DNA of 64,000 nucleotides from a virus (IMGVR_UViG_3300032315_001309:12305-76304), one strand, 5' to 3'. Shown: positions 9,519 to 40,625, numbered from the stretch's first letter. Translations and numbers: made by a program. The notes: generated from the sequence alone by a model not told the origin.

Positions 9519-9536
9519 TAATTATAGGATAATATA

Positions 9537-10291: not shown

Positions 10292-10389
10292 ATATTTTTA
10301 AAGACATTTATTACATAAAAATTATACAAAAATTTGTATAGTACAATTTAAAGCAAAATCCAAACCTTACAACAATAGATAAATTAAAA

Positions 10390-10994: not shown

Positions 10995-11159
10995 TACAGG
11001 AAATCGAGGATTTGAATGGATGCTCGATTCGGAAAGTAATAATAAACAAAAGGAGGAATCTGTTTTTAGTTATAGATTTAAGAAATTTATTTCTTTTCTT
11101 TATGAGAGAATCAAATTCTTAAGAAATTATCCAAGATAAAAACTATTCGGAGAATATAA

Positions 11160-20713: not shown

Positions 20714-20721
20714 TATAAATA
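20714..20721 (+). promoter_or_regulatory. T4-type late promoter TATAAATA
   Basis: Exact TATAAATA 28 nt upstream of the ATG at 20749, in the divergent intergenic region. Confidence 0.35.
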
Positions 20722-20748: not shown

Positions 20749-21471
20749 ATGGCACCTCGGATAAGAACAATGAATGATCTTAAGAATAAGATCTTGAGAC
20801 CTGCCACAACAAGTCACTTTGAATGTAATTTCAAGCCTCCTGAAAAAGTAGTCGCATGGATGAAACAGAAGGGGAGATCTGGTGCAGGAGTTAATCTAGA
20901 TTCTGCAGTGATGGATAAAATTAATATTAGTTGCTTTGAGGCATCTTTACCTGGATCTTCATTACAAACCACTAATTTGAATGATACTTATACTGGAGTT
21001 ACTGAAACCTACGCATATCGAAGGGCCTACGATAATCGATCTGATTTTACTTTTTATGTGGATCATTTGGATAATGGTAATAACAATTCTCAAAGCTATA
21101 CTGTAATTTTGTTTTTTGAGAATTGGTTATCTTACATTTCAGGTGAAAATTATGCCGATGGCCTGAGAGATCCAAATTATTTCTATCGAATAAATTTCTT
21201 TGATAATTATGTTGCTCCAAAAATAGAAATTGATAAATTTGAAAAAGACGTGGTCGGAGATTACTTACATTATGAATTCATTAATGCATATCCAATCTCA
21301 ATCGCATCGATGCCTGTTTCATATGAGGGGTCACAATTGTTAAGATGCACCGTTTCATTTACATATCAGAGATATTTAATTCAAAATAAACCAGCATCTG
21401 GTATTGGTAGGCCACCCATTGAGCCAAGAAGAGTCGTCGCCCCAACAACGCCTACACCACCAACCCTTTGA
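20749..21471 (+). CDS. hypothetical virion/baseplate protein
   Basis: 240-aa ORF preceded by a late-type promoter. Confidence 0.35.
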   Translation: MAPRIRTMNDLKNKILRPATTSHFECNFKPPEKVVAWMKQKGRSGAGVNLDSAVMDKINISCFEASLPGSSLQTTNLNDTYTGVTETYAYRRAYDNRSDFTFYVDHLDNGNNNSQSYTVILFFENWLSYISGENYADGLRDPNYFYRINFFDNYVAPKIEIDKFEKDVVGDYLHYEFINAYPISIASMPVSYEGSQLLRCTVSFTYQRYLIQNKPASGIGRPPIEPRRVVAPTTPTPPTL

Positions 21472-21501: not shown

Positions 21502-22242
21502 GTGTTATATTTGCTAATCATGGCTCTTCCTATTATTAATAATCCTGAGTATTTTGTTGAACTTCCTTCCACCGGTAAGAAAGTAAAATACCGTCCCTTT
21601 GTTGTAAGAGAGGAGAAGCTTCTTCTCTTGGCTTTAGAGAGTGAAGATCTTTCTGAAATGTCCAACGCAGTTAAGAATGTTCTTTCCAATTGCGTGAAGG
21701 GAGACAATCTAGATATTGAGACTTTACCTACTTTTGATATTGAATATCTATTTTTGAATATTAGGGGTAAGGCTGTTGGTGAGGATATTCAAGTAAACAT
21801 TCTTTGTCCTGATGACGAAGAAACTTACGTGAATGTAAAGATTTTTATTGATGATATCAAAGTAGTTAAAAACCCAGAACACAATAATCAAATCAAGATT
21901 AATGAAACCATAATGATGGAAATGAAATATCCATCACTTGAACAATTTATTAAAACGAATTTTGATTTCCAAAACAAGAAAAATCAGTTAGATCAATCAT
22001 TAGATTTAATTGCATCTTGTGTGCGTAAAATTTATAATGAAGATGAAGTTTGGACATCTTCCGATGTAACCGAAAAAGAAATTATTGAGTTCCTTGAGAG
22101 CATGAATTCTACTCAGTTCAAAAAAATAGAAAATTTCTTTGAGACAATGCCAAAATTGGAGCATAAAGTTAAGATCAAAAATCCCAACACAAAAGTTGAA
22201 AGTGAAGTTACATTGATGGGCCTGGCTGATTTTTTCGGTTAG
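21502..22242 (+). CDS. hypothetical structural protein (baseplate hub-assembly position)
   Basis: 246-aa ORF. CTAAATAATA upstream is NATAAATA-like. Confidence 0.35.
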   Translation: MLYLLIMALPIINNPEYFVELPSTGKKVKYRPFVVREEKLLLLALESEDLSEMSNAVKNVLSNCVKGDNLDIETLPTFDIEYLFLNIRGKAVGEDIQVNILCPDDEETYVNVKIFIDDIKVVKNPEHNNQIKINETIMMEMKYPSLEQFIKTNFDFQNKKNQLDQSLDLIASCVRKIYNEDEVWTSSDVTEKEIIEFLESMNSTQFKKIENFFETMPKLEHKVKIKNPNTKVESEVTLMGLADFFG

Positions 22243-22421: not shown

Positions 22422-25238
22422 ATGTCAATTCCGCAGCAATTAAATAATCTCAAGAAAACATATGGCACAGGAAACTTTGCTGCTGCGGAAGTATTCGTAA
22501 AACTTTTACGTTTCAAAAAAACGGATAGATTATATGCAGCCGCAGTAGAGTGGGCTGCAATGAGAATTGGATCAAATACTGATCTATTATCTTCTAGAGA
22601 CGCAAAACAGTTTGCAAAAGATAATCGGGATAAAAAATTAGGAGTAATACACAAGAAAATAATAAAGGAGATTGGTCAACTCTATAAGATCAATGAGGTG
22701 ATGAAAGGTATTGTATTACCTCCAAAATCTCAATTATTGGAACCTGCGGCCACACAATCTTTTACCAATTTAATTAAACAAAAAATACCAAAACCAGAAG
22801 TAAAACTGGAGTCCAGTAATACAATCGTAGAATCCGGGGGATCGACTGTATTATATTGGACTGCAAAAAACGCAACAAAAATAAAAAGAAGTAATATACC
22901 TGGAGTAACAACCAAGACTCCAGTAAATGGTTCTGCTGAAGTTTTTGATATAAAAAGAAGACGACAATTTTATATCGTTGTTCAGAACTATGAAGGAGTA
23001 ACTGCAGAATCCAGATTACCAATTATAGTAGAGACTCAAGATTACAAAAAACAACAAAAGAATGCTCCTGTACCAAGACAAACAACTAGTCAAACTAGTA
23101 CTCCACGAGCTAGTGTTTCTAGGTTACTGAGTCCATCGACAACTGTTTCGACTGAAGAAAAATCACAAACACAAGACAAGAAATCTTTTTCTGCGATTAC
23201 TTCACTGGATAATGGTATTCTTTTGAGTATTGACAAATCTCTCACAAATATATTAAAACTACTTAGAGGTCAATTAAAATTAAATCAAAATATTTTCAAC
23301 AAGGATAGAATATCCTCTGAAGCTGAAAGAAGAGCCAGAAGAGAAAAAACAATGGAAGGATATCAAAATGATTCTGGTATGTCGAAGATAGCCAGAGGTG
23401 CAGAAGATATGTTGTCTCCCTTTAAAGTTATTATTGATAAAATAGTAAATTTTATTTATTATACTTTTCTGGGTAAAGCATTTACTGATATTCTCAAATG
23501 GATGAATGATCCAGCAAATAAAGGTAAAGTCGATTCTTTTGGGAAATTTCTTAAAGATTTCTGGCCGATTATTGCAGGAGCCGCTTTATATTTTCTAACT
23601 CCTCTGGGTGGATTTATTAATGGGACCGTAAACGTATTGCGTGGGTTCACTAAATTAATGCTTAATTTGACTCCAAAATTACTAAAAGTATCTAAAGTAT
23701 TACTTTCAAATCCATATTTTGCTACTGCTGCTGCCGGTGTTATTGGATCTATTGCAAGAATAAAAGAAAAAGAAAGATTAAAGCCACTAATAAAAGAAAA
23801 ACAAAAACAAATAGATAAAGAGTTAGCTGATGAAAAAACTCCATGGTATAAAAAATTAGGATTATATTTTGCTAAGCAGGAGGCTTCATTTTCTAAATCC
23901 CAAGAAACATTACCCACATACTCACCGGGATCAATGTTTGCGAATGGGGGTACAATATTTTCAGGACAAGTAACTTCCAATGATGGGAAAAAAGTATCAG
24001 GTGCCGGAAAGGATACACAATTATTTTCAGTTATGGGTGGGGGTATGGCCGTTTTACAAAAAGGAGAAACTGTTTTACAACCAGGAGTTAGAGAAAAAAT
24101 AATTTCAGATAAAGGAATAGATGTTCTCGCATATAATAAAGGACCAAATGCAAATAAACCAAATACATTAGCCGGAAATATCACCCCAATGAATACTGGT
24201 GGTGTTGTTGGTTCCAAGGGATTGAGCCCGGATCAATTAATGTTCATTCAAAGAGCTATCGCTAGAGGAATTACAAATCCAAAAGAAATTAGTGCATTTA
24301 TGGCACAGGTTCATGTTGAACAGGGTGGGGATTTTTCAAAACCAAGAAGAGAGCTTTATAATCCTAGTTCAAGTGATCCTAAAGGTAAACCTGGGTATAA
24401 TTATTTTGCTCCGTATGCTAATCCTAAATTAGGTTTGGGTAATAGAAATACTGATGATGCTTATAATTATAGTGGTAGAGGATATTTGCAACTTACCGGA
24501 AGAGCAAATTACCAAGATATTGGAAAAAGAATAGGTGTAGATTTGTTGCAAGATCCGAATAGCCTGGTTAAAAATAAGGAAATCTCCATGGATGCTTCTA
24601 TAGAATATTGGAAGACCAGAGTAAGACCTAAAATTAAAAATTGGGACGATGTATTTAATGTATCTCGATTAGTGAATAATCCAAGTGCCAGGAGTCCAAG
24701 AGGAATCAATCACTTTAAACAAAGGGATGATCAATATAGATTTTATTCTGGATTACCGGGATCTGTTTACAAACCAAAACAGAAACCGAAACCGAAACCA
24801 AGACAAAAACCCAATCTATTACAATCTGTTTTTGAATTTATGGGTATGACTCCACGGAAAAAATATGGTGGACTAGTAGAGCCAGATTCCGGTGAAAGAT
24901 TATCTCATGCACAGGATAATATCCTTATGAGAGCCGAAAGGGGGGAATATGTAATTCCAACTATAGCTGCTAGGAAAATTGGAATAGATGTATTGGATAA
25001 AATTTCATCATTAGATCCTAATTTTAAAATTACAAGAGCGGATATTCCAATTCCCACACCGAAGCCATTTAACCCATCAGCTAAACGTAATACCGTTACT
25101 TTACCTCCAATTGGCGATCTAGGCAATTCGAGTGGAAGTTCTTCTGGTTCTGGTACTGAAATTCCTAGTTTTTCAGCCACTCCTGCTAGTGGAATTCAAG
25201 TTAGATTGGCTATGGCAAATATCTATGGGATTAACTAA
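22422..25238 (+). CDS. tape-measure-like tail protein with embedded GH19-like (chitinase/lysozyme-like) domain
   Basis: 938 aa. Central hydrophobic/TM segments (FWPIIAGAALYFLTPLGG..., NPYFATAAAGVIGSIA). NYSGRGYLQLTGRANYQDIG matches the GH19 GRG(P/Y)(I/L)QLT motif. C-terminal RKKYGGLV motif is shared with the next protein. Confidence 0.5.
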   Translation: MSIPQQLNNLKKTYGTGNFAAAEVFVKLLRFKKTDRLYAAAVEWAAMRIGSNTDLLSSRDAKQFAKDNRDKKLGVIHKKIIKEIGQLYKINEVMKGIVLPPKSQLLEPAATQSFTNLIKQKIPKPEVKLESSNTIVESGGSTVLYWTAKNATKIKRSNIPGVTTKTPVNGSAEVFDIKRRRQFYIVVQNYEGVTAESRLPIIVETQDYKKQQKNAPVPRQTTSQTSTPRASVSRLLSPSTTVSTEEKSQTQDKKSFSAITSLDNGILLSIDKSLTNILKLLRGQLKLNQNIFNKDRISSEAERRARREKTMEGYQNDSGMSKIARGAEDMLSPFKVIIDKIVNFIYYTFLGKAFTDILKWMNDPANKGKVDSFGKFLKDFWPIIAGAALYFLTPLGGFINGTVNVLRGFTKLMLNLTPKLLKVSKVLLSNPYFATAAAGVIGSIARIKEKERLKPLIKEKQKQIDKELADEKTPWYKKLGLYFAKQEASFSKSQETLPTYSPGSMFANGGTIFSGQVTSNDGKKVSGAGKDTQLFSVMGGGMAVLQKGETVLQPGVREKIISDKGIDVLAYNKGPNANKPNTLAGNITPMNTGGVVGSKGLSPDQLMFIQRAIARGITNPKEISAFMAQVHVEQGGDFSKPRRELYNPSSSDPKGKPGYNYFAPYANPKLGLGNRNTDDAYNYSGRGYLQLTGRANYQDIGKRIGVDLLQDPNSLVKNKEISMDASIEYWKTRVRPKIKNWDDVFNVSRLVNNPSARSPRGINHFKQRDDQYRFYSGLPGSVYKPKQKPKPKPRQKPNLLQSVFEFMGMTPRKKYGGLVEPDSGERLSHAQDNILMRAERGEYVIPTIAARKIGIDVLDKISSLDPNFKITRADIPIPTPKPFNPSAKRNTVTLPPIGDLGNSSGSSSGSGTEIPSFSATPASGIQVRLAMANIYGIN

Positions 25239-27940
25239 TGAACGCTTCCGCTTTTTTAGGTAGACAATCAACAGTAAGAAATCCTTCAACTCCATATAAA
25301 AGTGCTAGGATGGTAGATTCTTCTGCTAACTATTCTAATCGTATTGAAAGAAAAGTACAAAGAACTCCCACAACAAAATCTTTACTTACAATCAGACGAA
25401 AGGTATTTGATGTAGAAAATACTTTAAAGTCTTTGTTTAATTTGAATGTGAAATCTTCAACTATGAAGAAAAGAATCAAATTAATTCAAGGACAAGAAGA
25501 TAGAGACGGTAAAAAAAATACAAAAACAACTTCGAATTTGGGTGGAATCACACAAAAAACTCAAGTGGGGTCAATGGGCTTTATTTCAAATTTCTTAACT
25601 TTTACTTTTCTTGGGTGGTTGTTTAGTGTTTTTCAGCCTCTGATCGGAAAATTGGAAGGAATGGTACCTCTTTTAACTGGGACATTTGGCTTCTTTGGCG
25701 GGGTCCTTACTTCTTTGCTTGATGGGTTTGCTTCCTTTGTTAAATTTGGGAACGATACTCAGGATAAAATTAAAGGTGCGGAAAATCAAATAAAGAATCA
25801 AGCATCAAATATAAAGAAAACTTTTGATGATGCCACAAGCGCATTGGTGGGTTTACTTAATAGTACCACTCAAGTAGCAACTTCATTTTTGGATATATTT
25901 AATGAAACTTATGATAAACAATCTCTATCTTCAAGCAATACCACTCAAGAAAATGTTGTAAGCTTTTCTAGTCTTGCTAGCTCGGCAACTCCTCGCGTAA
26001 GAACATATGCTGAAGGTGGTCACGTAGATAATGGAAGAATTGATCCCCGGACTCCAATTAAAAGAGGTGGTAAAGAAAGAAGAACGCCGACACAAAAACA
26101 AAAGCCTATTATTCAACAACTAGTCACACAACCAGGAAAAGATGTTGGTGGTATTGATAAAATACAAGAATTATATGATCAAAGATCTAGTGATTCGGGT
26201 TTCAATATTTTTTCTACTTTTGATAGAACACATAAAAGTGGTTATGTTGCTCTTACCAAAACATCAGAAGAATTTAAAAGAGTCCATTCCAGTGATTTTC
26301 TCGGTATTGGTAATTTAATGAGCATCTCAGTCGATGCTTCTTTAGGACAAAAACCAGAAAAGAGATCATATACTCAATTTGCCGAAGGTATTAGTTATTT
26401 GGTTAATTTTGGATTGACGCAATCCGAAGAGTTTAAGAAACTCAATATAGAAAAAATGATAGAGAATATTGTTCAATCGAAAGTAGATTCTGCCATTAAT
26501 AAGGTAAGAGAAGAAATAAACAAAAGGAGTAAAGTAGAAGAAGGTGGTCCAGGTGGGGGTGCTGGTGAAATCGCTGGGGGTGAATATGGTGCATATGCCC
26601 CATCTGGAATAGAAAAACAAATTTATGATTATTTGATTAATGAGAAAAAAATGAATGATTTTCAGGCTTTGGGTTTGATGGCTAATATCCATCGGGAAAG
26701 TAGCTTTATTCCAAATAATAGAGAACCTAATGGAACTGGTGTTGGTTTATTTCAATGGTCACATGGTAGAGTAGCGCCGTTTATGCGAGCAGTTCCTAAT
26801 TGGGAAACTGATTGGAAAGGTCAGATTGATTATGCTTTATCTGAGCCGGAAAATTTATCTTTAGTTAAACCTGGGGCTTATCAATCGCAACAGTTTAAAT
26901 CTGCACAACAAGCGGCTGATTGGTGGATGAAAGAATGGGAAAGACCCAGAGATACTTTTACGGGTAGTAAAAAACATACAGAGTATTTAAATTCGGTTCC
27001 AAAAGGTCCAAGTGGATCTGCAAAATTTAGAGAAGGTTCCTCACTTGAAAATCTATCAGTCGAAGGTGGAATATTACCTAGTACTAGATTCATTTCTAGT
27101 TATAGGGGATGGAGATGGGGACAAATGCACAGAGGTGTGGATTATGCTGGGGCCGGTGTTGATGATAAACCCATATCAATAATAAAAGCAGGTAAGGTGG
27201 TGACAGCAGGTTACGATCCCGGCGGTGGTGGTTATATTGTAGTAATACAGCACAATGATGGAACCCTGTCCAAATATTTTCACCTAAAAGAAGGATCTAT
27301 AAAAGTTAAAGCTGGCCAAGCTGTATCACCCGGAAGAGTAATAGGTATTGTTGGAAATACGGGAAGAAGTACTGGTACACATTTACATTTTGAGGTGTGG
27401 AAAGGAAACAAAGATTTAGATAATCCCCATTTGTTGGCAAATAATTATTTTAGATTTGGTGGGAATGTTAAACCAACTCAAGTTAAGCCAGTTAAAACAA
27501 AACCTACACCTGGCCAATCTCCAATACCGGAGAATCAAGCACCAAAAGGCGAGGCATTCATGATTAACGGAAAAATGTATTATGTTGACCCCAAAGGCCA
27601 GGGAAAAGTTACCACTGAAAGTGGCGCAGAGATTGATTTCTCTGGTGGCAAAAATATTTCTCTATTGAAAGAAATATCAAAACTCAGAGAAATGAGAAAT
27701 ATTAAAGGTGCGCCAAAGAAAAAATATGGCGGATTGGTTTATTCAAGAGGTTCCAACCCATTACTGCCTCCAGATAAGTACGCATCATATAACGACCCAT
27801 CAATGACTTCGACTATTTTAATTCAACCTATAATTAAATCTAAGATAGTTCCAATCGACTCTGAAACAAATGGTACAATTATGTTCGCTGCTCCTAATGT
27901 AAATAGTTCATCAAGTAGTTTTGAATTAATGAGAAGTTAA
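25238..27940 (+). CDS. tail/baseplate protein with SLT-type lytic transglycosylase and M23 peptidase domains
   Basis: 900 aa. ANIHRESSFIPNN...GTGVGLFQWS matches the SLT E-S...GxGLMQ pattern. MHRGVDYAG...GNTGRSTGTHLHFEV matches M23/LytM (HxxxD...HxH). Hydrophobic N-terminal region. KKKYGGLV motif near the C-terminus. Confidence 0.6.
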   Translation: MNASAFLGRQSTVRNPSTPYKSARMVDSSANYSNRIERKVQRTPTTKSLLTIRRKVFDVENTLKSLFNLNVKSSTMKKRIKLIQGQEDRDGKKNTKTTSNLGGITQKTQVGSMGFISNFLTFTFLGWLFSVFQPLIGKLEGMVPLLTGTFGFFGGVLTSLLDGFASFVKFGNDTQDKIKGAENQIKNQASNIKKTFDDATSALVGLLNSTTQVATSFLDIFNETYDKQSLSSSNTTQENVVSFSSLASSATPRVRTYAEGGHVDNGRIDPRTPIKRGGKERRTPTQKQKPIIQQLVTQPGKDVGGIDKIQELYDQRSSDSGFNIFSTFDRTHKSGYVALTKTSEEFKRVHSSDFLGIGNLMSISVDASLGQKPEKRSYTQFAEGISYLVNFGLTQSEEFKKLNIEKMIENIVQSKVDSAINKVREEINKRSKVEEGGPGGGAGEIAGGEYGAYAPSGIEKQIYDYLINEKKMNDFQALGLMANIHRESSFIPNNREPNGTGVGLFQWSHGRVAPFMRAVPNWETDWKGQIDYALSEPENLSLVKPGAYQSQQFKSAQQAADWWMKEWERPRDTFTGSKKHTEYLNSVPKGPSGSAKFREGSSLENLSVEGGILPSTRFISSYRGWRWGQMHRGVDYAGAGVDDKPISIIKAGKVVTAGYDPGGGGYIVVIQHNDGTLSKYFHLKEGSIKVKAGQAVSPGRVIGIVGNTGRSTGTHLHFEVWKGNKDLDNPHLLANNYFRFGGNVKPTQVKPVKTKPTPGQSPIPENQAPKGEAFMINGKMYYVDPKGQGKVTTESGAEIDFSGGKNISLLKEISKLREMRNIKGAPKKKYGGLVYSRGSNPLLPPDKYASYNDPSMTSTILIQPIIKSKIVPIDSETNGTIMFAAPNVNSSSSSFELMRS

Positions 27941-29269
27941 ATGTCGAATTTTTCCGCTGCCCCAGGTGAAGGCCAAATACAAGAACTAACAATATTTTCG
28001 AATTACTTTAAGGACTTGAATCTGGCTGGTAATTCATTTATTGAATTAATTTTATATGAAAGTATTCTCGATTACTCTGTGAGAGCTTCTTTTTCGTTTG
28101 TGGATACAGGTTATAGGAGTTCAGGTAATTCAGTGGCGATAACCGAGGCCGATGGTATAAATTTAGTTTCTGGTGAAAAGGTATTTTTGAAAGTAACTGA
28201 TGGGTATGGTCAAGTTATATCATGTAAAAATGATTATCAATTAAGAGTAAATTCTCTGAAGAGTGCTGACGAAACAGTGAACAAAACTATAATATCTTTA
28301 GATTTTTATTCTAAGGAGTGTATTGACAATGAATTGGTGGAAAATCGAGTAACCAAAAGATACGAAGGAAAAATTTCAGATTCAGTTGAATCTATATTAA
28401 AAAATGTTCTGAAGACACCCAAAAACTTAGATATTGATCCTGGGTTAAATGATTTTAACTTTTTGGGTCATGTGGAAAAACCTTTTTATAAGATCGCATG
28501 GTTAGCAAAAAGAACAGTACCTGACATGCCAGATTCAAAGGGTAAGTTGGCTGGGTATTTTTTCTTTGAAACTTTAGATGATGGTGTTGGATCTGGGGGT
28601 TACAAATTCAAATCAATTGATATGATGTGGTCACAAACACCAAAAAGAAAATTAATTTATAATGATCTAGTTGCAACTCCACCTGGATACAATGCCAAAA
28701 TTCTTTCGTATTCTTTTAACAACTCAACAAGTATTGATAAATTATTAAAATCGGGTGCTTTTTCTTCACCTACGCTTAAGAGATTTGACCCATACACTAA
28801 CGAGTATGTTGAAAATCAATTTTCTGATACTGGGAGACTAAAGCCAAAAAATATGGGTGGATTAGAGCCGCCCAAGATAGCTAGTGATCTTGATTTATGG
28901 AATAAGTCTAGTAGAATTAGTTACCGATTTGATGACAAGGGCGTACTTCCAACCGGCACAACACTGAAAAATCAGTTGGAGTTTTCAAAGGATATTAACT
29001 TCAGTACCGAAGAGATTATTCGACAATCTTACACTAGATATAATAATCTCTTTACTATTAAACTGTCTGTCACAATCGTTGGGGATTTTGGAATACATGC
29101 AGGTGATTTGATTAGGTGTGATTTTCCTGAAATAAGTGGAAAAGAAAATACCATAGTCAGTAGTAAAAAAAGTGGACTATATATTGTGGTGGATGTTGCA
29201 CATCGAATACACCAAACAGGATATTATACGACACTGCACTTAGCCAGAGAGAGTATCTATAAAAAATAA
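27941..29269 (+). CDS. baseplate hub protein, gp27-like (by position upstream of gp5)
   Basis: 442 aa, immediately upstream of the gp5-like spike. No motif confirmation. Confidence 0.3.
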   Translation: MSNFSAAPGEGQIQELTIFSNYFKDLNLAGNSFIELILYESILDYSVRASFSFVDTGYRSSGNSVAITEADGINLVSGEKVFLKVTDGYGQVISCKNDYQLRVNSLKSADETVNKTIISLDFYSKECIDNELVENRVTKRYEGKISDSVESILKNVLKTPKNLDIDPGLNDFNFLGHVEKPFYKIAWLAKRTVPDMPDSKGKLAGYFFFETLDDGVGSGGYKFKSIDMMWSQTPKRKLIYNDLVATPPGYNAKILSYSFNNSTSIDKLLKSGAFSSPTLKRFDPYTNEYVENQFSDTGRLKPKNMGGLEPPKIASDLDLWNKSSRISYRFDDKGVLPTGTTLKNQLEFSKDINFSTEEIIRQSYTRYNNLFTIKLSVTIVGDFGIHAGDLIRCDFPEISGKENTIVSSKKSGLYIVVDVAHRIHQTGYYTTLHLARESIYKK

Positions 29270-29293
29270 CTTCACGGAACACATTAAAACACA

Positions 29294-31594
29294 ATGAGTG
29301 ATTTATTTAATTCAGAAAAGGGGGGAATTGAAAATCTCTATGGTTGGATGGGACAAGTTGTTGATGAATCTTGTTGGGTATATAACCATTCAAATTCTGA
29401 TTTTAAACATAAATTACATAGCTCAAAAGATATTGCTGGTTATGGATACCGCTATAAGGTAAGAATTTTCGGTAGAGATGTATCAACAAAAGATATACCA
29501 GATGATCAACTAGAAATGGCGGAAGTTCTTCTTCCTGTTACTTCTGGTTCTGGTCATGGTGGATCAGTACAGACACCGAACATACGACAGGGAATGTATG
29601 TTTGGGGGTTTTATAAAGATGGTATGGATGCAACCGAACCCATTATTGTGGGGGTGCTTCCAAATAATTCACAAACTACTCTTTTTGGTGGAGACCCAGA
29701 TCAAAATTTTATACCTAGATCAGGGTATATTGGACTAGAAAGAACATTACCAGTATCCACTAAGAATATAAAATTAGAGGGACCTTCATCACTCTCCACA
29801 AATGAAGGTATAAATGCAACAGTTACGACTGTTGCGCATGAGGATCAAAAGTTAGACGGTAAAAGAAGATTCTATGTCCCCAAAACCATTAATTGTGATG
29901 GTTCAGATGGTGAAATAAAAGGATTACAGAAAATAATTAAACAATTATTAAAAGATATTCAGAGAATAAAAAGATTCTCTCAGAGTTTTTCGGGGGCAGT
30001 TTCTGATCTGGCGTCAAATATCACTAGTTTAATTAATGATGTTACGGTAATTGCGGCCTCTATTGTCAAGTCATTAATGATGAGAGTTAGGGGCTATGTA
30101 GTGAATTCACTAAACAAAAAAATATCTCAGATAATTGAAAAACTTCCACCGAATCGAAGGCCGAATTTAGTTGAAAGCGTAAGAAAGTCTACTGATACTA
30201 TACAATGCACTTTTAATAAAATAGTATCAAGATTATCTGGATTGGTGGAAGGTTTATTAAATGATATAGTAGAAAAATACGTTAACGCACCTTTATGTGC
30301 AGCCGAAGCATTTGTGGGGAATTTTATTTCTAGTATTTTAGGTGACTTAACTTCTGGAATCACAAGCGCATTGAGTTTTATATCTGAAGTGACCTCAGGT
30401 GTTACAGATTCAATTTTTTCTGGTCTTGATGTTTTAACCGGTGTTCTCAAATTCCTTTCGTGTGAAGAGGAATTGAATTGTCAAATTTTAGATGAATGGT
30501 CGTTTTGGGATGGATCCCAATTGACTGTTGATAATATTTTAGGTGAAAAAGTAAGTGAAAAAATAAGAGGAGTTGTAAATCAAACAGCCCCAGGATGCAG
30601 TTATTCCCAGTTACCTTGTGGGCCACCAAAGTTACAGTTATATGGTAATGGTAGTGGCGTATCTGGAAATGTTGTCGTAAGCCCATCTGGATATATTATG
30701 GGTATTGATATATTATCCGGTGGACAGTATATTTCTGAACCGATTGTTAAAATTGTAGACGATTGTGGAAGTGGAAATGATGCTGTGGTTGTTCCAATAT
30801 TAGCAACAATACCAAGTTTCGAGTTGGATGATGTCCCACAATTTACTATAGATAATTTTATAGTTATTGATCCTGGGTTTGGTTATTTGAATTATCCTGA
30901 CGGGTCAACCGGTGGGGGTGGTGGTAAATTTTCCGGTCCATGTGATACAATAGTAGGAGTAAGCGTCTATACACCTGGTCAAAATGTTGTAGTCAAAGCT
31001 GGTGATATTGTTTATCTTCCATACAAAACCACTATTGATATTTTTGATTCACAAAACGAAATAGTTCAAATCATAAATGGTCTAGGTCAATTAACTCCAC
31101 TTATAGTTGAATTCAATGGGACGTTTGTTACTCCCGAATGCGCTTCCGATAGCTTAATCGGCGTTGGGGGATCTAGTGGTAACATTGAGACTGTAACAGG
31201 CCCTACAGGGGCAGCAACAGCCCCCTCTGGTGGTTCTCCGGTTTCAATAGGTAGTAGCTCAACATACCCAGTTGTTGTCTCTATTTGTGATTTGGCCGTT
31301 TTGAATGGGGGAATTAATTATTCACCATCCGACACAATACAAGTGATTCCAAATAATGGAATCAACGTTAAACCCATATTTGATTCTTTTGGTAAATTAT
31401 TAGATGTGGAAGTTTCTTCGTGTGGAGTCGGTTATGAGGATATACCCGAGATACGAGTTATCTCAGAAACTGGATATAATGCCGTTTTGGTTCCGGTCTT
31501 TAAATTTGACAGAATCAAGAATCAGGAAGACCTTCTAAATATTACACCTGGAGTTCCTTTAATAAACGTAGTGGATTGTGTTGGTAAATTATGA
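29294..31594 (+). CDS. 5: baseplate central spike gp5-like (OB-fold N-terminus, no lysozyme domain)
   Basis: The N-terminal GWMGQVVDES...YRYKVRIFGRD...LLPVTSGSG...GMYVWGFYKDGMDATEPIIVGVLPN matches the gp5/VgrG OB-fold pattern. The C-terminal half is Gly/Ser/Val-rich and beta-helix-like. Confidence 0.55.
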   Translation: MSDLFNSEKGGIENLYGWMGQVVDESCWVYNHSNSDFKHKLHSSKDIAGYGYRYKVRIFGRDVSTKDIPDDQLEMAEVLLPVTSGSGHGGSVQTPNIRQGMYVWGFYKDGMDATEPIIVGVLPNNSQTTLFGGDPDQNFIPRSGYIGLERTLPVSTKNIKLEGPSSLSTNEGINATVTTVAHEDQKLDGKRRFYVPKTINCDGSDGEIKGLQKIIKQLLKDIQRIKRFSQSFSGAVSDLASNITSLINDVTVIAASIVKSLMMRVRGYVVNSLNKKISQIIEKLPPNRRPNLVESVRKSTDTIQCTFNKIVSRLSGLVEGLLNDIVEKYVNAPLCAAEAFVGNFISSILGDLTSGITSALSFISEVTSGVTDSIFSGLDVLTGVLKFLSCEEELNCQILDEWSFWDGSQLTVDNILGEKVSEKIRGVVNQTAPGCSYSQLPCGPPKLQLYGNGSGVSGNVVVSPSGYIMGIDILSGGQYISEPIVKIVDDCGSGNDAVVVPILATIPSFELDDVPQFTIDNFIVIDPGFGYLNYPDGSTGGGGGKFSGPCDTIVGVSVYTPGQNVVVKAGDIVYLPYKTTIDIFDSQNEIVQIINGLGQLTPLIVEFNGTFVTPECASDSLIGVGGSSGNIETVTGPTGAATAPSGGSPVSIGSSSTYPVVVSICDLAVLNGGINYSPSDTIQVIPNNGINVKPIFDSFGKLLDVEVSSCGVGYEDIPEIRVISETGYNAVLVPVFKFDRIKNQEDLLNITPGVPLINVVDCVGKL

Positions 31595-32229
31595 ATTTAA
31601 CGCATTTAAATGCCAGAGATGAAGGTAAAGAAAAAACAAATTCGGAATGGGTCAAATATGGAACCAAGGACGGGCAAATAGAATTTGGTCATCTACATTT
31701 ATCCAACGATGATCAAGGTTCAGGTGTAACATCTGGAGTTTATCTACAAGCATATGACTCTAGACACTATATGACAATGGATATTGATGGAAAACGAAAG
31801 GGTTGGACCTTGAATCGCTGTCCTGGGAGTTATGAAATTTTATGTGGAACTGAGACAAAGGAAAGTGACGCTGGATTTTTTCTTCTCACTGAAAATGGAG
31901 ACATTATAATTCGGGCACCAAAAGGAAGAATTCGACTTTCCGCACTTGACATAGATATAAGAGCGACCGGAAAAGATAACACCAGGGGCTCTATAAACAT
32001 TGATTCAAACCAAAGCGTTAATATAAAAACAGGAACTTTTGATGTCAATGCAAATGTTGGAATTAAATTATTTACCGCATCAACTTTAGATTTGATTGCG
32101 AATACTTCAATGACAATAACAAGTAATTTTATAAATGGATTAACTGCTGCGTCTAAAGCATATCCGAACAAGAGTGCAACTACGCAACAATCAACTGGTA
32201 AATTTAACACTAATTCAAGTTATAATTAA
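31591..32229 (+). CDS. hypothetical baseplate/spike-associated protein (beta-helix-like repeats)
   Basis: 212 aa with repetitive N/T/I-rich strands. Overlaps the gp5-like stop. Confidence 0.35.
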   Translation: MNLTHLNARDEGKEKTNSEWVKYGTKDGQIEFGHLHLSNDDQGSGVTSGVYLQAYDSRHYMTMDIDGKRKGWTLNRCPGSYEILCGTETKESDAGFFLLTENGDIIIRAPKGRIRLSALDIDIRATGKDNTRGSINIDSNQSVNIKTGTFDVNANVGIKLFTASTLDLIANTSMTITSNFINGLTAASKAYPNKSATTQQSTGKFNTNSSYN

Positions 32230-32230
32230 A

Positions 32231-33016
32231 ATGGCATTTCAGGCAGATGATATATCAGTATCTCACCAATTAGTTGTTGGTGATGGATTTCCAATACAGG
32301 TACTGGGAGTTGGGTTAGGTAAAATTAGAGGATCGTCCTATATAGAAGGCCCCGCAATATTCGGCAGAGCCACGTCTTTCCCGAATGTCTGGGCCACAGT
32401 AATGATTGGTCCAAACTCTAATGTGGATTCGAAACCACCAATCATACCGGGAGCGTTATGTACTGGAGTCAATAATCCGTATTCTTTGGGTGTTCGCGGA
32501 CCTTCGGCTTTTATGGATGTAATTGATGCTGCTGAAAATATTAATGTGGGTGGTAACTTAATAGCTCAAGGCGAGGTAATATCTAGATGCGGAAAACATA
32601 TTCTATCTGCGAAAAAGAATTTCGATATCCCACACCCAACAAAAGAGAATTGGAGACTGAGGCATACTTGCCCCGAAGGCCCAACAAATGATGTCTATGT
32701 TCGGGGAAAATTAAAGAATAGTAATGTGATCAAACTACCCGAATATTGGAAAAAATTAATAGACCCCACCACAATTACAGTAAGTTTGACACCAATAGGA
32801 TACCACCAAAATATAATAGTAAAAACAATTACCATAGAAAAAATTGATATTCAATCAAATAGTCCGGTACCTATTCATTGTTTTTATCATATTTTTGCCG
32901 AAAGAGCCGATGGTGAAAAATTAATAGCAGAATATCCAGGCAATAGTCCAATTGATTATCCTGGGAACAATGATGAATACTCTATTTGCGGTTACCATTA
33001 TGATATTAAGGAGTGA
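32231..33016 (+). CDS. structural protein, paralog A of a tandem pair
   Basis: HPTKENWRLRHTCPEGPTNDVYVRGKLKNSNVIKLPEYWKKLIDPTTITVSLTPIGY is about 60% identical to the next ORF. The first ATG after the previous stop is at 32231; the track ORF starts earlier with an overlap. Confidence 0.4.
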   Translation: MAFQADDISVSHQLVVGDGFPIQVLGVGLGKIRGSSYIEGPAIFGRATSFPNVWATVMIGPNSNVDSKPPIIPGALCTGVNNPYSLGVRGPSAFMDVIDAAENINVGGNLIAQGEVISRCGKHILSAKKNFDIPHPTKENWRLRHTCPEGPTNDVYVRGKLKNSNVIKLPEYWKKLIDPTTITVSLTPIGYHQNIIVKTITIEKIDIQSNSPVPIHCFYHIFAERADGEKLIAEYPGNSPIDYPGNNDEYSICGYHYDIKE

Positions 33017-33021
33017 TTTAA

Positions 33022-33678
33022 ATGGCTGAAAAGTTTATACCAAGAAATAATGGAATAAGAGATTGTTCTGATCAACAAACATGGGGACAAAAATCTTTTA
33101 GATATGATTATATTGTAAAATCGACATCGGGCGATGAGGAATATCCAATCGACGCATGTAGGCCCTGGGTTCATGCGAATTTTCAGGTCGATAATATTCA
33201 GATAAATGGAACAGCTACTGGTGATTTTGAAGGAACTTTTAATGGAATAATTAACGTCCAATCCTGGAAAGGATTTGATATTAAACACCCCACTAAAAAG
33301 AATCATAGATTGAGGCACATTTGTTTAGAAGGCCCTGAAGGTGGTATTTATTTTCGTGGCCGATTGACTAATTCCAATATAATTGAAATACCCGAATATT
33401 GGAATAATTTGGTTGATCCTGAGAGTATTACTGTGAGCCTCACACAAATAGGATATTCGCAAGACTTAATTATAGAAAAAATTGAATGGGGTAGGCGGGT
33501 GATTATAAAATCTGGAACAGGGTCCAATATTGATTGTTACTATCTAATACATGGATCCCGTATAGATGGAGAGCCTTTAATTGTCGAATATGCGGGAGAC
33601 ACCCCAACCGATTACCCAGGTAATGACACTCAATATTCGATTTCTGGTTACAATTATGATAATAGGAGCAATTCATGA
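33022..33678 (+). CDS. structural protein, paralog B of a tandem pair
   Basis: HPTKKNHRLRHICLEGPEGGIYFRGRLTNSNIIEIPEYWNNLVDPESITVSLTQIGY is clearly homologous to the previous ORF. Confidence 0.4.
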   Translation: MAEKFIPRNNGIRDCSDQQTWGQKSFRYDYIVKSTSGDEEYPIDACRPWVHANFQVDNIQINGTATGDFEGTFNGIINVQSWKGFDIKHPTKKNHRLRHICLEGPEGGIYFRGRLTNSNIIEIPEYWNNLVDPESITVSLTQIGYSQDLIIEKIEWGRRVIIKSGTGSNIDCYYLIHGSRIDGEPLIVEYAGDTPTDYPGNDTQYSISGYNYDNRSNS

Positions 33679-34280: not shown

Positions 34281-34577
34281 ATGGGATTCAAAATCACAAG
34301 TTCCTACCATTGGTATTTGATTCCAAAAGAGCCACCTGCTCTTATAAAGGCATACTTCATCGAAGGAATTCCCTTTGATTTTGATTACTTGGAGAATATA
34401 GAAACTGTACAAAAAACTAGTCCAGAAGTATTGTCCGAGGCTGAGAGAAATAAGGGAATTCATGCTGATGATATGTTTAGAAAATCAGATTATCTTATTG
34501 CGGAAATGATGCACCCGCTTCTTTTTGATTTGGAAATAGATAATCCAGAAGAATTACCACAGGAAAATATCAACTAA
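34281..34577 (+). CDS. hypothetical protein
   Basis: 98-aa ORF upstream of the giant fibre gene. Several small ORFs (33675-34267) precede it. Confidence 0.3.
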   Translation: MGFKITSSYHWYLIPKEPPALIKAYFIEGIPFDFDYLENIETVQKTSPEVLSEAERNKGIHADDMFRKSDYLIAEMMHPLLFDLEIDNPEELPQENIN

Positions 34578-34607: not shown

Positions 34608-37600
34608 ATGGCGTTAAACCGTTTAGAGAATTTTCTGAAGTCTTCTAGAGGAAAAGTTCTTCATGTAAATCCAGAAAATCTGGATTCAACTGATGCAATT
34701 TCAAATGATGGTTCCTCACCATTTACTCCGTTTAAGACCATCAACAGAGCCCTCATGGAGGCTTCAAGATATTCTTATCAAATTGGTTTGGGTAATGATA
34801 GATTCAATTTCTGCACCATTCTATTATACTCAGGTGAACATCTTGTAGATAATAGACCAGGTGCAGTAATAAGTGATGATGGAATAGTAAGAGTAAGAAG
34901 CGGTTCTACTACAACAATCAACCAGTTTGATATAAACACTATTCTTGATATCACAAATTCCAATAATAAATTATACCTCTTAAACTCTGTTCATGGTGGA
35001 GTGATAGTTCCAAGAGGAACATCTATTATTGCACAAGATTTAAGGAAAACAGTAGTTAGACCATTATATGTTCCAGATCCTATAAGTAGCGATACTATCG
35101 ATGAAAACATAGAAAGATCCGCCATTTTTAGAATTACTGGGGCTTCTTTTTTCTTTGGTTTTAGTATTTTAGATGCAAGTCCAAATGGATTCTGTTATAA
35201 AAATTATAATACTTCTAAATTTACTCCAAATTATTCACACCACAAATTAACCGCATTTGAATATGCTGATGGGGTGAATCCAGTAAAAATAAGAGATGCT
35301 TTTATTAATCTAGATACTACTAGAACTGACCTAGATCAATATTACGAAAAGATTTCTCTGGTTTATGGTGTTAGTTCCGGTAGAACTATAACTGATGTAA
35401 ATTATGTTGGTGGAGTATCCGTTGATATTCAACCAATTATTGATGAATATCGAATTGTTGGACCTAGAGGAGAAGTTGTAGGTATTTCAAGTATTATTTC
35501 GGGTGATGGTGTAACGCCATCAAAAGTAATCACCGTAACTCTAGATGGACCAGCAACTGGTATTTCAGTAGACACTTCTATTCAAGTTTCTGACGTTAAT
35601 GAAATAGGATATGATGGACAATATGTTGTTGCCTCTATTCCAACAACTAATCAGGTTCAGTACATAACACCGAATATTCCAACTGATCCAAATCCACCAT
35701 TATTTGGTGCTACGTTAAACATCATATCTGATACTATATCATCAGCGTCACCATATGTTTTTAACGTATCATTAAGATCCGTTTATGGCATGTGTGGCCT
35801 ACATGCAGACGGTAGTAAAGTTACTGGATTTAAGAGTGTAGTTGTTGCACAATTTACTGCTGTTTGTTTACAGAAAGACGATAATGCATTTGTAATTTAT
35901 GATGAAGATAGCGGTAATTATGTTGATTCATCAGTAATACCAGATCTCTATAAAAATACCAGATCAAGATATAAGCCAGAGTTCGAAAACTACCACATTA
36001 AGGTATCTAATGACTCTTTTGCACAGCTAGTTTCTGTTTTCTCTATTGGATATGCTACTCAAATTGTTGCGGAAAGCGGTGGTGATTATTCAATCACTAA
36101 CTCAAACTCCAACTTTGGTGCAAAGACCTTCATTTCTTCTGGTTATAAAAAGGACTCATTTGATCAAGATGATCACGGATACATTATAGGTGTAATTCCA
36201 CCCGAAGAAGTAAATGTAGATCCAGTTACAGTTGAATTCGCTCAGATTGATATTGGTCTGACTAAATCTGTTTCTGCGGGAATCGGCACCACAAATAGAT
36301 TGTATTTGTATAATAAAACTGATATAAATTCTCCACCTAATGTAATTATGGATGGATTTACTGTTGGTGCTAAAATAAATGATACGATAAACATTGAACT
36401 ACCAACAAGAGCATCATCTAAAATTGTTATACCGAATACTGAAAGTTCATATGCAAAATCTTTTAATGTTCAAAGACAAAATAATGATTTTGAAAATGCC
36501 ATTACCGGTGGAGTTTTAACTCTAACACAATCACACACATTTGAGTCTGGTGAAAAAGTAAGGGTATTGTCTGAAAATGGACATCTACCAGACGGTCTTG
36601 ATGATAGAGTTTATTATATTATAGAATCGAGTATCGATAATACTCTTTTAAATACTCAAGTAAAACTAGCCACCACATTTAATAACTCTATCAACAATAT
36701 ATCCATACTACCAAATAGGAAGGGTGGAGTTCTTTCAATTGTAAGTAGAGTACACGACAAGATAGCGAATGATCCAGGACACCCTATTCAGTGGGATTCG
36801 GTTAATAATAATTGGTATATTACTGTAAGTGAAACAGACAATGGAATATATTCTGTTATTAGTCCTCTTAGTATTGATAGCACTGGAAGAACTTTCGTCA
36901 TCAGGACCCCCGATAGAAGAACAGAGCAGAATAAATTATATAAATTAATTTATAGTATTCCAAAGAATACAGCAACCGCTGCAAGGCCGCCAATTAACGG
37001 ATATATCATACAGGAAAGTAATAATAGTTCTCTTACTAATGAAGAACTTTCAAGATATTTTGGAAGCAGTAGCTTAACTGTAGACAATGAAATTAGAAAT
37101 CCTAGATTTATTTCTGATATACGGTGGGTCAGTGGTGAGATTATAGTAACTACAGAATTGCCCCATAAGTTAAACGTAGGGGACTTTACTGAAATTGTAA
37201 ATGTTCTCCCTGTTGGATATAATGGAACATATCAAGTATTAAGAACACCTAGTTCTAGAAGTTTCGTTTATACTTCAACAAATAATCCTGGTATCTTCTC
37301 AAACGATACCAGAAATAGAAATATTGATCTCCCATATATTAAAAGAAAAGAAATCCGGGATGTTTTTCAAATCTATAAATCTGAAGAAGTTCAGAAATTT
37401 ATTAGAGATAAACAAGATGGTATATATGAATTAACAGTTATTCATAATTCTGTAGCGCCAACAGTAGCGCCGTTTACTGAATTTAAGTTTTCCCAACCAT
37501 TAACAAATCTCTATCCAAGATTGGATAGAGATAATTTGAATATAGATCCAAATCCAACAGTTTGTTTTGCTCATTCTAATCTAATTGGTAGTGTATTAGT

Positions 37601-40600: not shown

Positions 40601-40625
40601 TGCATTCATTATGAGAACTGCTTGA
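34608..40625 (+). CDS. giant tail-fibre/structural protein (2005 aa) with C-terminal phage tail-collar domain and His-rich terminus
   Basis: The C-terminal IMWNGTFAEAATLQPGWAICDGRTVNGRTTPDLRNRFIVGSAG matches the tail-collar pattern. The His/Gly tail is SHSHTGSTTGAGGHGHSVSDPGHSHD...GDHAHG. Long S/T/G/N-rich repetitive body. CTAAATAAACA upstream is late-promoter-like. Confidence 0.7.
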   Translation: MALNRLENFLKSSRGKVLHVNPENLDSTDAISNDGSSPFTPFKTINRALMEASRYSYQIGLGNDRFNFCTILLYSGEHLVDNRPGAVISDDGIVRVRSGSTTTINQFDINTILDITNSNNKLYLLNSVHGGVIVPRGTSIIAQDLRKTVVRPLYVPDPISSDTIDENIERSAIFRITGASFFFGFSILDASPNGFCYKNYNTSKFTPNYSHHKLTAFEYADGVNPVKIRDAFINLDTTRTDLDQYYEKISLVYGVSSGRTITDVNYVGGVSVDIQPIIDEYRIVGPRGEVVGISSIISGDGVTPSKVITVTLDGPATGISVDTSIQVSDVNEIGYDGQYVVASIPTTNQVQYITPNIPTDPNPPLFGATLNIISDTISSASPYVFNVSLRSVYGMCGLHADGSKVTGFKSVVVAQFTAVCLQKDDNAFVIYDEDSGNYVDSSVIPDLYKNTRSRYKPEFENYHIKVSNDSFAQLVSVFSIGYATQIVAESGGDYSITNSNSNFGAKTFISSGYKKDSFDQDDHGYIIGVIPPEEVNVDPVTVEFAQIDIGLTKSVSAGIGTTNRLYLYNKTDINSPPNVIMDGFTVGAKINDTINIELPTRASSKIVIPNTESSYAKSFNVQRQNNDFENAITGGVLTLTQSHTFESGEKVRVLSENGHLPDGLDDRVYYIIESSIDNTLLNTQVKLATTFNNSINNISILPNRKGGVLSIVSRVHDKIANDPGHPIQWDSVNNNWYITVSETDNGIYSVISPLSIDSTGRTFVIRTPDRRTEQNKLYKLIYSIPKNTATAARPPINGYIIQESNNSSLTNEELSRYFGSSSLTVDNEIRNPRFISDIRWVSGEIIVTTELPHKLNVGDFTEIVNVLPVGYNGTYQVLRTPSSRSFVYTSTNNPGIFSNDTRNRNIDLPYIKRKEIRDVFQIYKSEEVQKFIRDKQDGIYELTVIHNSVAPTVAPFTEFKFSQPLTNLYPRLDRDNLNIDPNPTVCFAHSNLIGSVLVNNPENSVTKESFNKFNSDLVVGFGVTGIVSNQTGTSHTIYTSVDHGLAGITSVSIVSTGASYISGTYYGVGVGTTSGGASASFKVVVDGTQRVSSVSLMNGGSNYSVGNRISIISGIGTTTGFIPAVLNVTSIADSIDNSVSVSGFGEKYLNYNDAYRITEIKNSNQVIVSSASTIIGFSTSIVPIIGAGIINGKIIPILSLTYNNITGISTVTLGRSSGIKLNSKIRITGFNSNLYNQDVVVTKVNSLTQVEVKTGISTTTPPTSGSGIVIPLGISPIVGKNRNSYYYSGISTTTGAALNSNASDSTPLNIRNATVTGLKQGDFIEVNSEIMRIKSPITSNLVPVYRGVFGTERTTHPINSLVKKVQIIPVELRRNSIIRASGHTFEYVGYGPGNYSTALPENQDREISTKERLLSQATKIGGGTIYYSGMDENGDFYSGNRKLSSSTGQEEVYDLPIPTVVGEYSTPNIAESDKLIVSSSITVNGGENNNAVSEFNGPIILNKKLTSYSPDGIETTSLFLQGDQEISRRHSISEDTPIIVGNYGDILYRATPNEGENIGWVYTTNDRWKTWGYVGDLGTLVYLYSGTESTSTLEGIVDSLKIVGDPNGFGIDVDIQIDPVVGFGTIVLRNPISIINFGTELSRNNPTFTNRSGGSRLVYYNNLNTTNVDYATGVSANSLWNSIPINDPSVNFKWFAGETEIASLNGVGNLTIAGTLNVSGGITGTITGNVTGNLTGTATSSITSANLTRSVVAGDGLAGGGSLNGQNVTLNIGTVVNGGIQVDGDSIQVDSTVVRTSGTQSISGAKTFNDGVSVTGNTSSTTFTGNGITPIGGIIMWNGTFAEAATLQPGWAICDGRTVNGRTTPDLRNRFIVGSAGDSGGISVATITGGVTKTGGNKDSIVVSHSHTGSTTGAGGHGHSVSDPGHSHDVTAAVTGVAFPSLTSTGGFGLVVTNTTIGTTGSGTGISISAVGDHAHGLSIDATGGSGTDANLPPYYALAFIMRTA

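Follow-up and report, generated by a model that had tools for sequence, protein, structure and literature searches.

Cell-wall hydrolase domains on a paralogous pair of putatively tail-internal proteins beside a lysozyme-less gp5-like spike in a T4-like cyanophage

Local digestion of the cell wall by bacteriophage T4 takes place at the tail tip and is performed by the lysozyme domain of gp5. Muralytic domains are reportedly also carried by tape measure proteins (TMPs), pb2 of phage T5 and Tmp of mycobacteriophage TM4 being said to be cases. T4 gp29 itself is reported to comprise transmembrane, coiled-coil and hub-binding parts and to form an inner-membrane channel after the gp5-gp27 device has left (bioRxiv 10.64898/2026.03.06.709160); in the Anabaena myophage A-1(L), lysozyme/endoglucanase and peptidase domains are found on the hub protein gp15, and their lytic activity was shown experimentally (PMC10966104). 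Here, we describe four consecutive genes (encoding P1 to P4) at positions 22,422 to 31,594 of a viral DNA stretch of 64,000 nucleotides (nt) (IMGVR_UViG_3300032315_001309:12305-76304; hereafter the window). A sequence-only reading had placed three different peptidoglycan-degrading domains on two giant proteins, P1 and P2, and none on the gp5-like P4. The open reading frames are as that reading gave them, and the distribution was confirmed: the lytic domains are carried by two large proteins encoded in the baseplate-hub gene cluster and not by the spike. It is the normal layout of the Kyanoviridae, in which the enzymatic cargo is interchangeable. We consider it reasonably probable that P1 and P2, referred to below as the A and B proteins, are duplicated, virion-borne proteins of the tail interior that serve as tape measure and in ejection and have an exchangeable enzyme slot, and that together take the roles of T4 gp29 and of the gp5 lysozyme.

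The GH19 domain claimed for P1 was recovered by Pfam (PF00182, residues 618-739; E=7e-11, 42.8 bits against a gathering cut-off of 25.5). E633 and E644 align with the two HE...QE glutamates of the SPN1S GH19 endolysin (PDB 4ok7), and the GH19 signature (G-R-G-x-x-Q-L-T) is intact, YSGRGYLQLTGRANY being aligned to YRGRGLIQITG of 4ok7. By this alignment the domain is genuine and its catalytic residues are intact; a muralytic or chitinolytic activity is predicted. For P2, an SLT domain with an ES motif had been proposed. A lysozyme-type domain with this motif is present, the family is not SLT: PF01464 was absent among the Pfam matches of P2 at E<=0.01, and the best match is to PF18013 (Phage_lysozyme2; 72.9 bits against a cut-off of 28.2, E=4e-20). 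Its catalytic E487 is conserved in 22 of 23 aligned domains, the next residue being S or T in 22. The M23 peptidase with its HxxxD...HLHFE motif likewise lies above its gathering cut-off (PF01551; 85.6 bits against 28.7, E=2.6e-24); in alignments with PDB 9gy1 (E=1.2e-19) and lysostaphin all metal-binding and catalytic residues (H631/D635, H682, H715/H717) are present. Both domains of P2 are thus, as far as their matches and aligned residues tell, genuine and catalytically intact, and are predicted to be wall hydrolases.

The absence of a lysozyme from the spike holds well beyond the window. No lysozyme family match was obtained by Pfam in P4, in six isolate homologues or in the 120 database relatives listed, nor in the 35 proteins scanned at the gp5 position (that of the window and 34 metagenomic homologues). 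P4 gave no Pfam match to Gp5_OB (PF06714) at E<=0.01, a domain found in 12 of the 35 proteins at this position, and none to Gp5_C. In a monomer model of low confidence (AlphaFold2, AF2; pLDDT 59), strands at residues 17-122 form an OB-like N-terminus, long helices of ~220 amino acids (aa) (206-428) occupy the position of the T4 gp5 lysozyme, and beta-rich domains follow; the best PDB fold matches of this model (Foldseek) are to T4 gp5 (1pdl/1k28) and are weak (E=2e-3). The spike had been described as an OB-fold N-terminus plus a beta-helical C-terminus. An OB-like part would agree with this model; a simple beta-helix is not seen in the monomer, beta-helix-like strand periodicity (~7-8 residues) being limited to residues 539-612, with globular beta domains flanking it. 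Foldseek matches to viral fusion proteins were regarded as spurious helical-bundle hits and were not built on. Nine cysteines of P4 (C201, C305, C335, C390, C396, C435, C442, C491, C762) are invariant across 36 homologues (41-85% identity). Together with the helical insert, they suggest disulfides or metal sites, and a function of the insert that differs from lysozyme. Small proteins encoded downstream (31591-33678 and 34281-34577; p213 in S-PM2) were considered as a detached lysozyme and rejected, since they have no Pfam matches.

P3 is, as modelled, a hub of the gp27/VgrG fold: its AF2 model (pLDDT 81.8, pTM 0.84) has T4 gp27 (2z6b_D) as top Foldseek match (E=3.7e-17, probability 1.0, target-normalised TM-score 0.67), followed by VgrG, Mu gp44 and the P1 phage hub.

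The 9.2-kb region is 98.6% identical to that of Synechococcus phage B3 and 98.5% identical to that of B23, both 244-kb T4-like cyanomyoviruses (Kyanoviridae) of a subarctic freshwater lake with a Synechococcus-Cyanobium host (PMC7171214). The B3 counterparts of P1 to P4 (b3_0009 to b3_0012) are each annotated 'hypothetical protein'; b3_0009 and b3_0010 are 98% identical to P1 and P2. In the window the operon order is tube-like protein, gp26, gp51, A (P1), B (P2), gp27-fold protein (P3), gp5-like protein (P4). The order gp26-gp51-A-B-gp27-like-(CP12)-gp5-like was found in S-SM2, S-SCSM1, P-SSM2, S-PM2, RB11-B, S-SSM7, S-CREM2, S-N03 and S-SRM01, and gp26-gp51-A-B-gp27-gp5 in ~60 IMG/VR contigs recovered with a P3 profile; the same small gp51-like gene lies 5' of protein A in S-SM2, S-SCSM1, P-SSM2, S-PM2 and S-N03. 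A single 864-aa protein (g61; 5410-8004 of locus L010) stands in S-CRM01 where the others have A and B. It is BLAST-similar to both A and B of S-N03, and a fusion or mosaic is therefore suggested.

Whole-protein BLASTP of P1 against P2 returned only a 9-residue motif and a hydrophobic patch, so that profile comparison was needed to reveal their relationship. Aligned with hhalign (50 A against 50 B proteins), the two families match with a probability of 98.8% (E=9e-17), P1 259-361 corresponding to P2 41-136; this stretch of ~100 residues consists of charged helices followed by a hydrophobic ILDxIxxFIxFTxLG segment. On these profiles, A and B are old paralogues. A search with residues 250-600 of P1 found the core in 803 representative clusters, the best 150 of which have representatives of 226 to 1771 aa. 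Their consensus runs from an N-terminal domain over charged helices, the hydrophobic core and a first module (GG..V..G.DTQ....PGExV) to the variable cargo, a second module (KxxGG...AD.Q...QPGEYVxP) and a conserved C-terminus (LPPI...FS...YGI); where a relative has both modules in detectable form, they flank the enzyme. Module 1 was detected by jackhmmer in 39 of 56 A proteins and in none of 55 B proteins, its invariant residues in P1 being G522, G529, D531, G548 and E549. Within residues 336-444 of P1, which hold its hydrophobic segments, W360, N366, W381 and P382 are conserved in the family.

A C-proximal (R/K)KKYGGLV motif had been reported as common to both proteins, and it is: P(R/K)KKYGGLV is identical at 8 of 9 residues between P1 and P2 (BLASTP), and PRKKYGGLV is conserved in 40 of 59 relatives of P1. 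The family consensus at P1 811-850 is KxxGG...AD.Q...QPGEYV.P, by which module 2 of P1 begins at its KKYGGLV. Compared with each other within P1, module 1 and the putative module 2 show no significant similarity (z=1.1), so the two-module organization is stated from the relatives and the family consensus. Of 55 B proteins, 30 have related aromatic-x-GG-x-[VIL] motifs in their C-terminal 220 aa, and aromatic-x(1,2)-GG-x-[VIL] is 4-5 times as frequent in both families as in shuffled sequences (A, 108 vs 19.5±4.7; B, 122 vs 28.1±5.4), compared with 6 vs 3.0 in the other open reading frames (ORFs) of the window. The hydrophobic segments ascribed to both proteins are real but moderate, just under the classical transmembrane threshold: the Kyte-Doolittle maxima (19 aa) are, from N- to C-terminus, 1.15, 1.51 and 1.34 in P1, and 1.52 and 1.56 in P2.

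The cargo carried by A and B changes from phage to phage. S-PM2 has an ADP-ribosyltransferase (PF01129, E=1.3e-5) and PF18013 on A (p209; 1057-4557 of locus L005) and M23 on B (p210); S-SCSM1 has GH73 on A and VanY on B; S-N03 and S-CREM2 have GH19 on A and PF00959 on B; RB11-B has none detected on A and M23 on B; in P-SSM2, S-SSM7 and S-SM2, no Pfam-detectable hydrolase was found on A, B or gp5. A Pfam census of 50 proteins per position (that of the window and 49 from metagenomic contigs) gave, for A, GH19 (5), PF00959 (5), PF18013 (4), Hydrolase_2 (2) and GH73 (1); for B, PF18013 (18), M23 (12), DPBB_1 (5), VanY (3), Hydrolase_2 (3), SLT_3 (2), SLT (2), M15_3 (1), Amidase_2 (1) and Amidase_3 (1). 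The idea of a unique three-enzyme arsenal was rejected: PF18013 with M23 on B recurs in 5 of the 49 metagenomic loci, and the full triple (with GH19 on A) in one other lineage (loci L021-23) among them. The combination in the window is one draw from the family pool. The redistribution of lytic domains is genuine, but it is a trait of the family and no peculiarity of this phage, the same layout being present across the isolates and the ~60 contigs; and the proposed adaptation to a thick or unusual peptidoglycan is weakened because P-SSM2, S-SSM7 and S-SM2 do without a detectable hydrolase on A, B and gp5. Among 50 sampled representatives of the A core, the cargo is varied and includes non-muralytic domains: ADP-ribosyltransferase (one at 8e-9), trypsin-like peptidase and C39-like peptidase. 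Such cargo implies entry of A, or of some part of it at least, into the cytoplasm, in keeping with an ejected protein, and hence delivery of effectors into the host.

Homologues of P1 and P2 have been found in particles. ORF213/214 of S-SCSM1 were detected in purified virions (PMC9602691), as were ORF208/209 of S-CREM2, with 73 and 71 unique peptides (PMC10665884), and these homologues are described as abundant in CsCl-purified virions (PMC9602691, PMC10665884). Their abundance there speaks against A and B being end-of-cycle endolysins encoded in the structural region and foreign to the virion. Several homologues do bear the RefSeq/GenBank labels 'endolysin', 'chitinase' or 'lysozyme', and all catalytic residues are intact; but the proteins are of 900 aa and more, ~60% of each is a conserved non-enzymatic scaffold common to hundreds of clusters, many family members have no recognisable hydrolase, and their genes are co-oriented with, and abut or overlap, those of the hub. 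The P1 and P2 genes overlap, the P3 gene follows P2 immediately and the P4 gene overlaps its downstream neighbour, an arrangement that suggests coupled expression. We regard the endolysin explanation as very improbable.

Packaging in the capsid was proposed by the authors of both the S-CREM2 and the S-SCSM1 studies (PMC10665884, PMC9602691); A and B would then be ejection proteins in the manner of T4 Alt, the T4 internal proteins or T7 gp14-16, unrelated to tail length. An ADP-ribosyltransferase acting in the cytoplasm (S-PM2 p209, and the one further representative noted above) does recall the capsid-borne T4 Alt, and A and B have no homology to gp29. Their genes are placed inside the hub cluster, however, directly after gp26/gp51 and directly before gp27/gp5, and not among head genes; their sizes increase with tail length; and in the isolates examined none of the hub-cluster genes is annotated as a gp29 homologue, so that no other tape-measure candidate is seen there. 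A capsid location is therefore held to be improbable.

The relation to tail length is suggestive and was drawn from four phages with two proteins, with tails measured by negative-stain electron microscopy: S-SRM01, ~100 nm (A 536, B 636, A+B 1172 aa; 0.085 nm/aa); S-N03 (gp153/gp152), 138 nm (A 933, B 722, A+B 1655 aa; 0.083 nm/aa); S-SCSM1, 173 nm (A 950, B 1131, A+B 2081 aa; 0.083 nm/aa); and S-CREM2, 418 nm (A 1565, B 1456, A+B 3021 aa; 0.138 nm/aa). The summed length of A and B rises monotonically with tail length, at a ratio that is not constant. In S-CREM2, the tail of which is three times as long, both proteins are ~600-700 aa longer, and compared with S-N03 both carry inserts of ~560-600 aa. 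The insert in A is S/T/N-rich, of low complexity and with extra domains; residues 773-1310 of B (ORF209; 7185-11555 of locus L008) hold 28 exact 13-residue FQQ[ST][MN]GSVxPxxx repeats in two arrays. By arithmetic, the extra 280 nm would demand 0.38-0.44 nm/residue from one insert and ~0.2 nm/residue from both together. Neither insert alone spans the extra length, which hints at a joint, possibly serial, contribution.

These figures also bear on a division of labour in which a single member of the pair is the tape measure and its partner a hub- or baseplate-attached tip lysin, in the style of the T4 gp5 lysozyme or of A-1(L) gp15. The single protein of S-CRM01 comes to ~0.18 nm/aa for its tail of 140-170 nm, close to T4 gp29, and in S-SRM01, S-N03 and S-SCSM1 values of 0.15-0.19 nm/aa result from either A or B taken singly; moreover, the A-1(L) hub protein carries lysozyme/endoglucanase and peptidase domains (PMC10966104), and its chain 8kea_A in the PDB was matched. 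Against such a division, the same core is present in both P1 and P2 (hhalign), A and B were both enlarged in the long-tailed S-CREM2, and the stretch asked of one insert is at or above the limit of a fully extended chain; in S-CRM01, similarity of the one protein to A as well as B suggests fusion or mosaic rather than loss of one function. We judge a separate tip lysin unlikely.

The sequence-only reading had called P1 and P2 tape-measure-like tail proteins. The designation is supported indirectly, by synteny with gp51 and the gp27-fold gene, by homologues in S-SCSM1 and S-CREM2 virions and by the enlargement in the 418-nm S-CREM2; profile similarity to gp29 does not support it. A and B are encoded together with hub and tube-initiator genes, in the window and family-wide, the T4 order being 51-27-28-29-48-54. 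Several points weigh against a tail-internal tape-measure role. The A and B families showed no similarity to T4 gp29 in hhalign (probability 1.3% and 0.1%); no TMP family of Pfam was found on ~150 A and B proteins, and the TMP matches of P2 in PHROG pass through its enzyme domains; searched against the PDB with phmmer, the halves of P1 and P2 that lack the enzymes yielded nothing meaningful and no scaffold relative. Folded enzyme domains of 15-20 kDa, in several copies, have no obvious fit in a tube lumen of ~4 nm. S-CRM01, with one 864-aa protein and a tail of 140-170 nm, is an outlier to a rule that sums two proteins, and the length relation is that of four phages only. The authors of the proteomic studies regarded the homologues as non-structural 'endolysins', packaged in the capsid or carried over (PMC9602691, PMC10665884), and the genome announcement of B3 and B23 neither discusses the four genes nor gives a tail length (PMC7171214).

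With these points taken into account, tail-internal tape-measure/ejection proteins remain our preferred reading, from which we infer a location in the tail lumen, length measuring, ejection and membrane insertion of P1 and P2. Both would be assembled with the gp26/gp51/gp27/gp5 hub and housed in the hub cavity and the tube lumen. Each would consist of four parts, namely a helical and hydrophobic core, glycine-rich linear motifs, a cargo slot and a conserved C-terminal tail, the slot in A being bracketed by two copies of the GG...PGExV module. Sheath contraction would push the lysozyme-less spike P4 on hub P3 through the outer membrane; spike and hub would leave; P1 and P2 would be expelled from the tube into the periplasm, where GH19 and PF18013 would cleave glycan strands and M23 the peptide cross-links, opening a local hole; the hydrophobic segments would then enter the cytoplasmic membrane and help to form a DNA conduit. 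Ejection and channel formation are proposed by analogy with the T4 gp29 channel and with muralytic tape measures. A more elaborate version, combining a two-component tape measure, modular delivery vehicles and the GG motif as a tube contact, is doubtful and offered tentatively: within the tail tube, the paralogues may be arranged serially or form a hetero-oligomer and may determine the tube length between them; the A slot may take ~ten peptidoglycan-hydrolase families as well as ADP-ribosyltransferases and trypsin-like and C39-like peptidases; and the aromatic-x-x-GG-x-V motif, to which the 28 repeats of S-CREM2 would belong, may be the tube-contact unit. As speculation, one extended 13-residue repeat would be about as long as one tail-tube ring is high.

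Table 1 Features of the hub operon and of proteins P1 to P4. Positions are counted from the first letter of the window; residue numbers refer to the protein named.
Feature	Position	Strand	Evidence or remark
T4-type late-promoter consensus, TATAAATA	20714..20721	+	Consensus match; lies 5' of the operon's first gene at a distance of 28 bp
Tail-tube-fold protein, 240 aa, first gene of the operon	20749..21471	+	PF23849 Phage_TTP_2 E=1.1e-10; phrog_45 tail tube E=3e-24
gp26-like baseplate hub protein	21502..22242	+	PF12322 T4_baseplate E=1e-71; phrog_150; B3 label 'T4-like gp26'
Small gp51-like hub assembly ORF, 54 aa	22254..22418	+	Counterpart of b3_0008, noted 'gp51' in B3
P1 (A protein), 938 aa, putative tail-internal scaffold with GH19 cargo	22422..25238	+	ORF, Pfam, PHROG, profile search
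P1 residues 259-361, helical and hydrophobic core common to P2	23196..23504	+	hhalign
P1 residues 336-444, three moderately hydrophobic segments	23427..23753	+	336-354, 381-399, 426-444
P1 residues 500-560, conserved module 1 (F-x-x-GG-x-I ... G-x-DTQ ... GE-x-V)	23919..24101	+	
P1 residues 606-775, GH19 glycoside hydrolase domain, catalytic E633 and E644	24237..24746	+	PF00182; PDB endolysins 8p8e, 4ok7
P1 residues 811-850, PRKKYGGLV ... RGEYVIP, positional module 2 copy 3' of the cargo slot	24852..24971	+	
P2 (B protein), 900 aa, paralogous scaffold with PF18013 and M23 cargo	25238..27940	+	Start overlaps the P1 stop by 1 nt
P2 residues 41-161, core common to P1 (41-136) and hydrophobic segments (119-137, 143-161)	25358..25720	+	
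P2 residues 459-573, phage tail lysozyme, catalytic E487-S488	26612..26956	+	PF18013 (Phage_lysozyme2)
P2 residues 629-728, M23 metallopeptidase (H631, D635, H682, H715, H717)	27122..27421	+	PF01551
P2 residues 826-834, PKKKYGGLV motif	27713..27739	+	
P3, gp27-like central baseplate hub, 442 aa	27941..29269	+	AF2 and Foldseek; phrog_350 E=1.8e-69
P4, gp5-like central spike without lysozyme domain, 766 aa	29294..31594	+	phrog_1922 E=1.8e-74

The promoter match in Table 1 lies in the divergent gap between a gp4-like gene (-) and the tube-like gene (+), and is, from its fit to the consensus, the putative late promoter of the hub operon. The octamer TATAAATA has two matches in the 64 kb (6663 and 20714), compared with 9.6 expected from shuffles; it is apparently depleted in the window, and one of its copies stands precisely where the hub operon begins. 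On the opposite strand near the operon are gp53, a gene at the gp48 position and gp4. Downstream of the spike gene, two adjacent paralogous genes (32231-33016 and 33022-33678) both match phrog_17490 and phrog_28536 (unknown function) and are preceded by a 212-aa phrog_26118 protein; a 2005-aa ORF (34608-40625; 'tail fiber protein' in B3) has as sole Pfam match a 20-residue BppL_N motif near residue 1789; and a 496-aa ORF (40699-42189) with a collagen-like Gly-X-Y repeat (GPAGPAG...) at 41180-41338, where local GC rises to 0.43, probably encodes a fibre protein. Unrelated to the lytic domains, an SF2 helicase (ResIII/DEAD) adjoins an RNA-ligase-like protein with a PHA02142 OB domain (42852-45487), and eight tRNA genes (Lys, Trp, Tyr, Asp, Ile, Phe, Glu, Met) lie at 58451-63990, consistent with the 14-16 tRNAs reported for B3 and B23.

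Virion-associated peptidoglycan hydrolases on tape-measure-like proteins are already known, and near-identical unannotated proteins are present in GenBank; RefSeq labels on homologues include 'endolysin' and 'tail length tape measure protein'. The family picture, with paralogous A and B, a bracketed slot, a lysozyme-less gp5 throughout and expansion of both proteins with tail length, was not found described in the literature searched, which also yielded no kyanovirus tail structure and no statement that cyanophage gp5 lacks lysozyme. Taken alone, the window is an ordinary instance of the Kyanoviridae pattern, and the interest lies mainly at the family level. Four consecutive 'hypothetical' genes of B3-like freshwater cyanophages are given a concrete, testable role; the labels of kyanovirus gp5 ('hub subunit and tail lysozyme') and of its neighbours ('endolysins') are corrected; the A/B pair emerges as a candidate for the gp29 counterpart that this ecologically dominant family was missing; the swapped cargo amounts to a natural collection of enzymes that act on the walls of cyanobacteria; and a two-protein tape measure, if true, would be a variant of the way in which contractile tails fix their length.

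Compared with described systems, P1 and P2 are closest to their Kyanoviridae homologues (S-SCSM1 ORF213/214, S-CREM2 ORF208/209, S-PM2 p209/p210, S-N03 gp153/gp152), which occupy the same slot between gp51 and the gp27-like hub and have the same scaffold core with cargo in the C-terminal half, the type of cargo differing between phages. In T4, the gp29 gene shares the hub cluster with gp26, gp51 and gp27, as those of A and B do; one gp29 there stands against two proteins here, however, without detectable homology, the lysozyme is on the spike in T4 whereas the enzymes are here on predicted internal proteins, and the gene order differs, A and B preceding gp27 and gp5 adjoining gp27. The pair PF18013 and M23 on annotated TMPs of Staphylococcus and Mammaliicoccus phages aligns to P2 458-723 with 28-32% identity, a similarity limited to the enzyme domains. 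Like A and B, these staphylococcal TMPs, T5 pb2 and TM4 Tmp are large proteins with hydrolase domains and hydrophobic segments, and they lie inside the tail and have length or ejection functions such as those proposed for A and B; unlike the A/B pair, they are single TMPs, mostly of siphoviruses or of phages with Gram-positive hosts. A-1(L) is likewise a cyanobacterial myophage with several hydrolase domains at the tail tip, and weak matches link its hub chain 8kea_A to the M23 region of P2 and to the P3 fold; in that phage the enzymes form part of the gp27-like hub itself and the tube is filled by gp13, a separate helical TMP, whereas here P3 is free of enzymes and these are carried by A and B.

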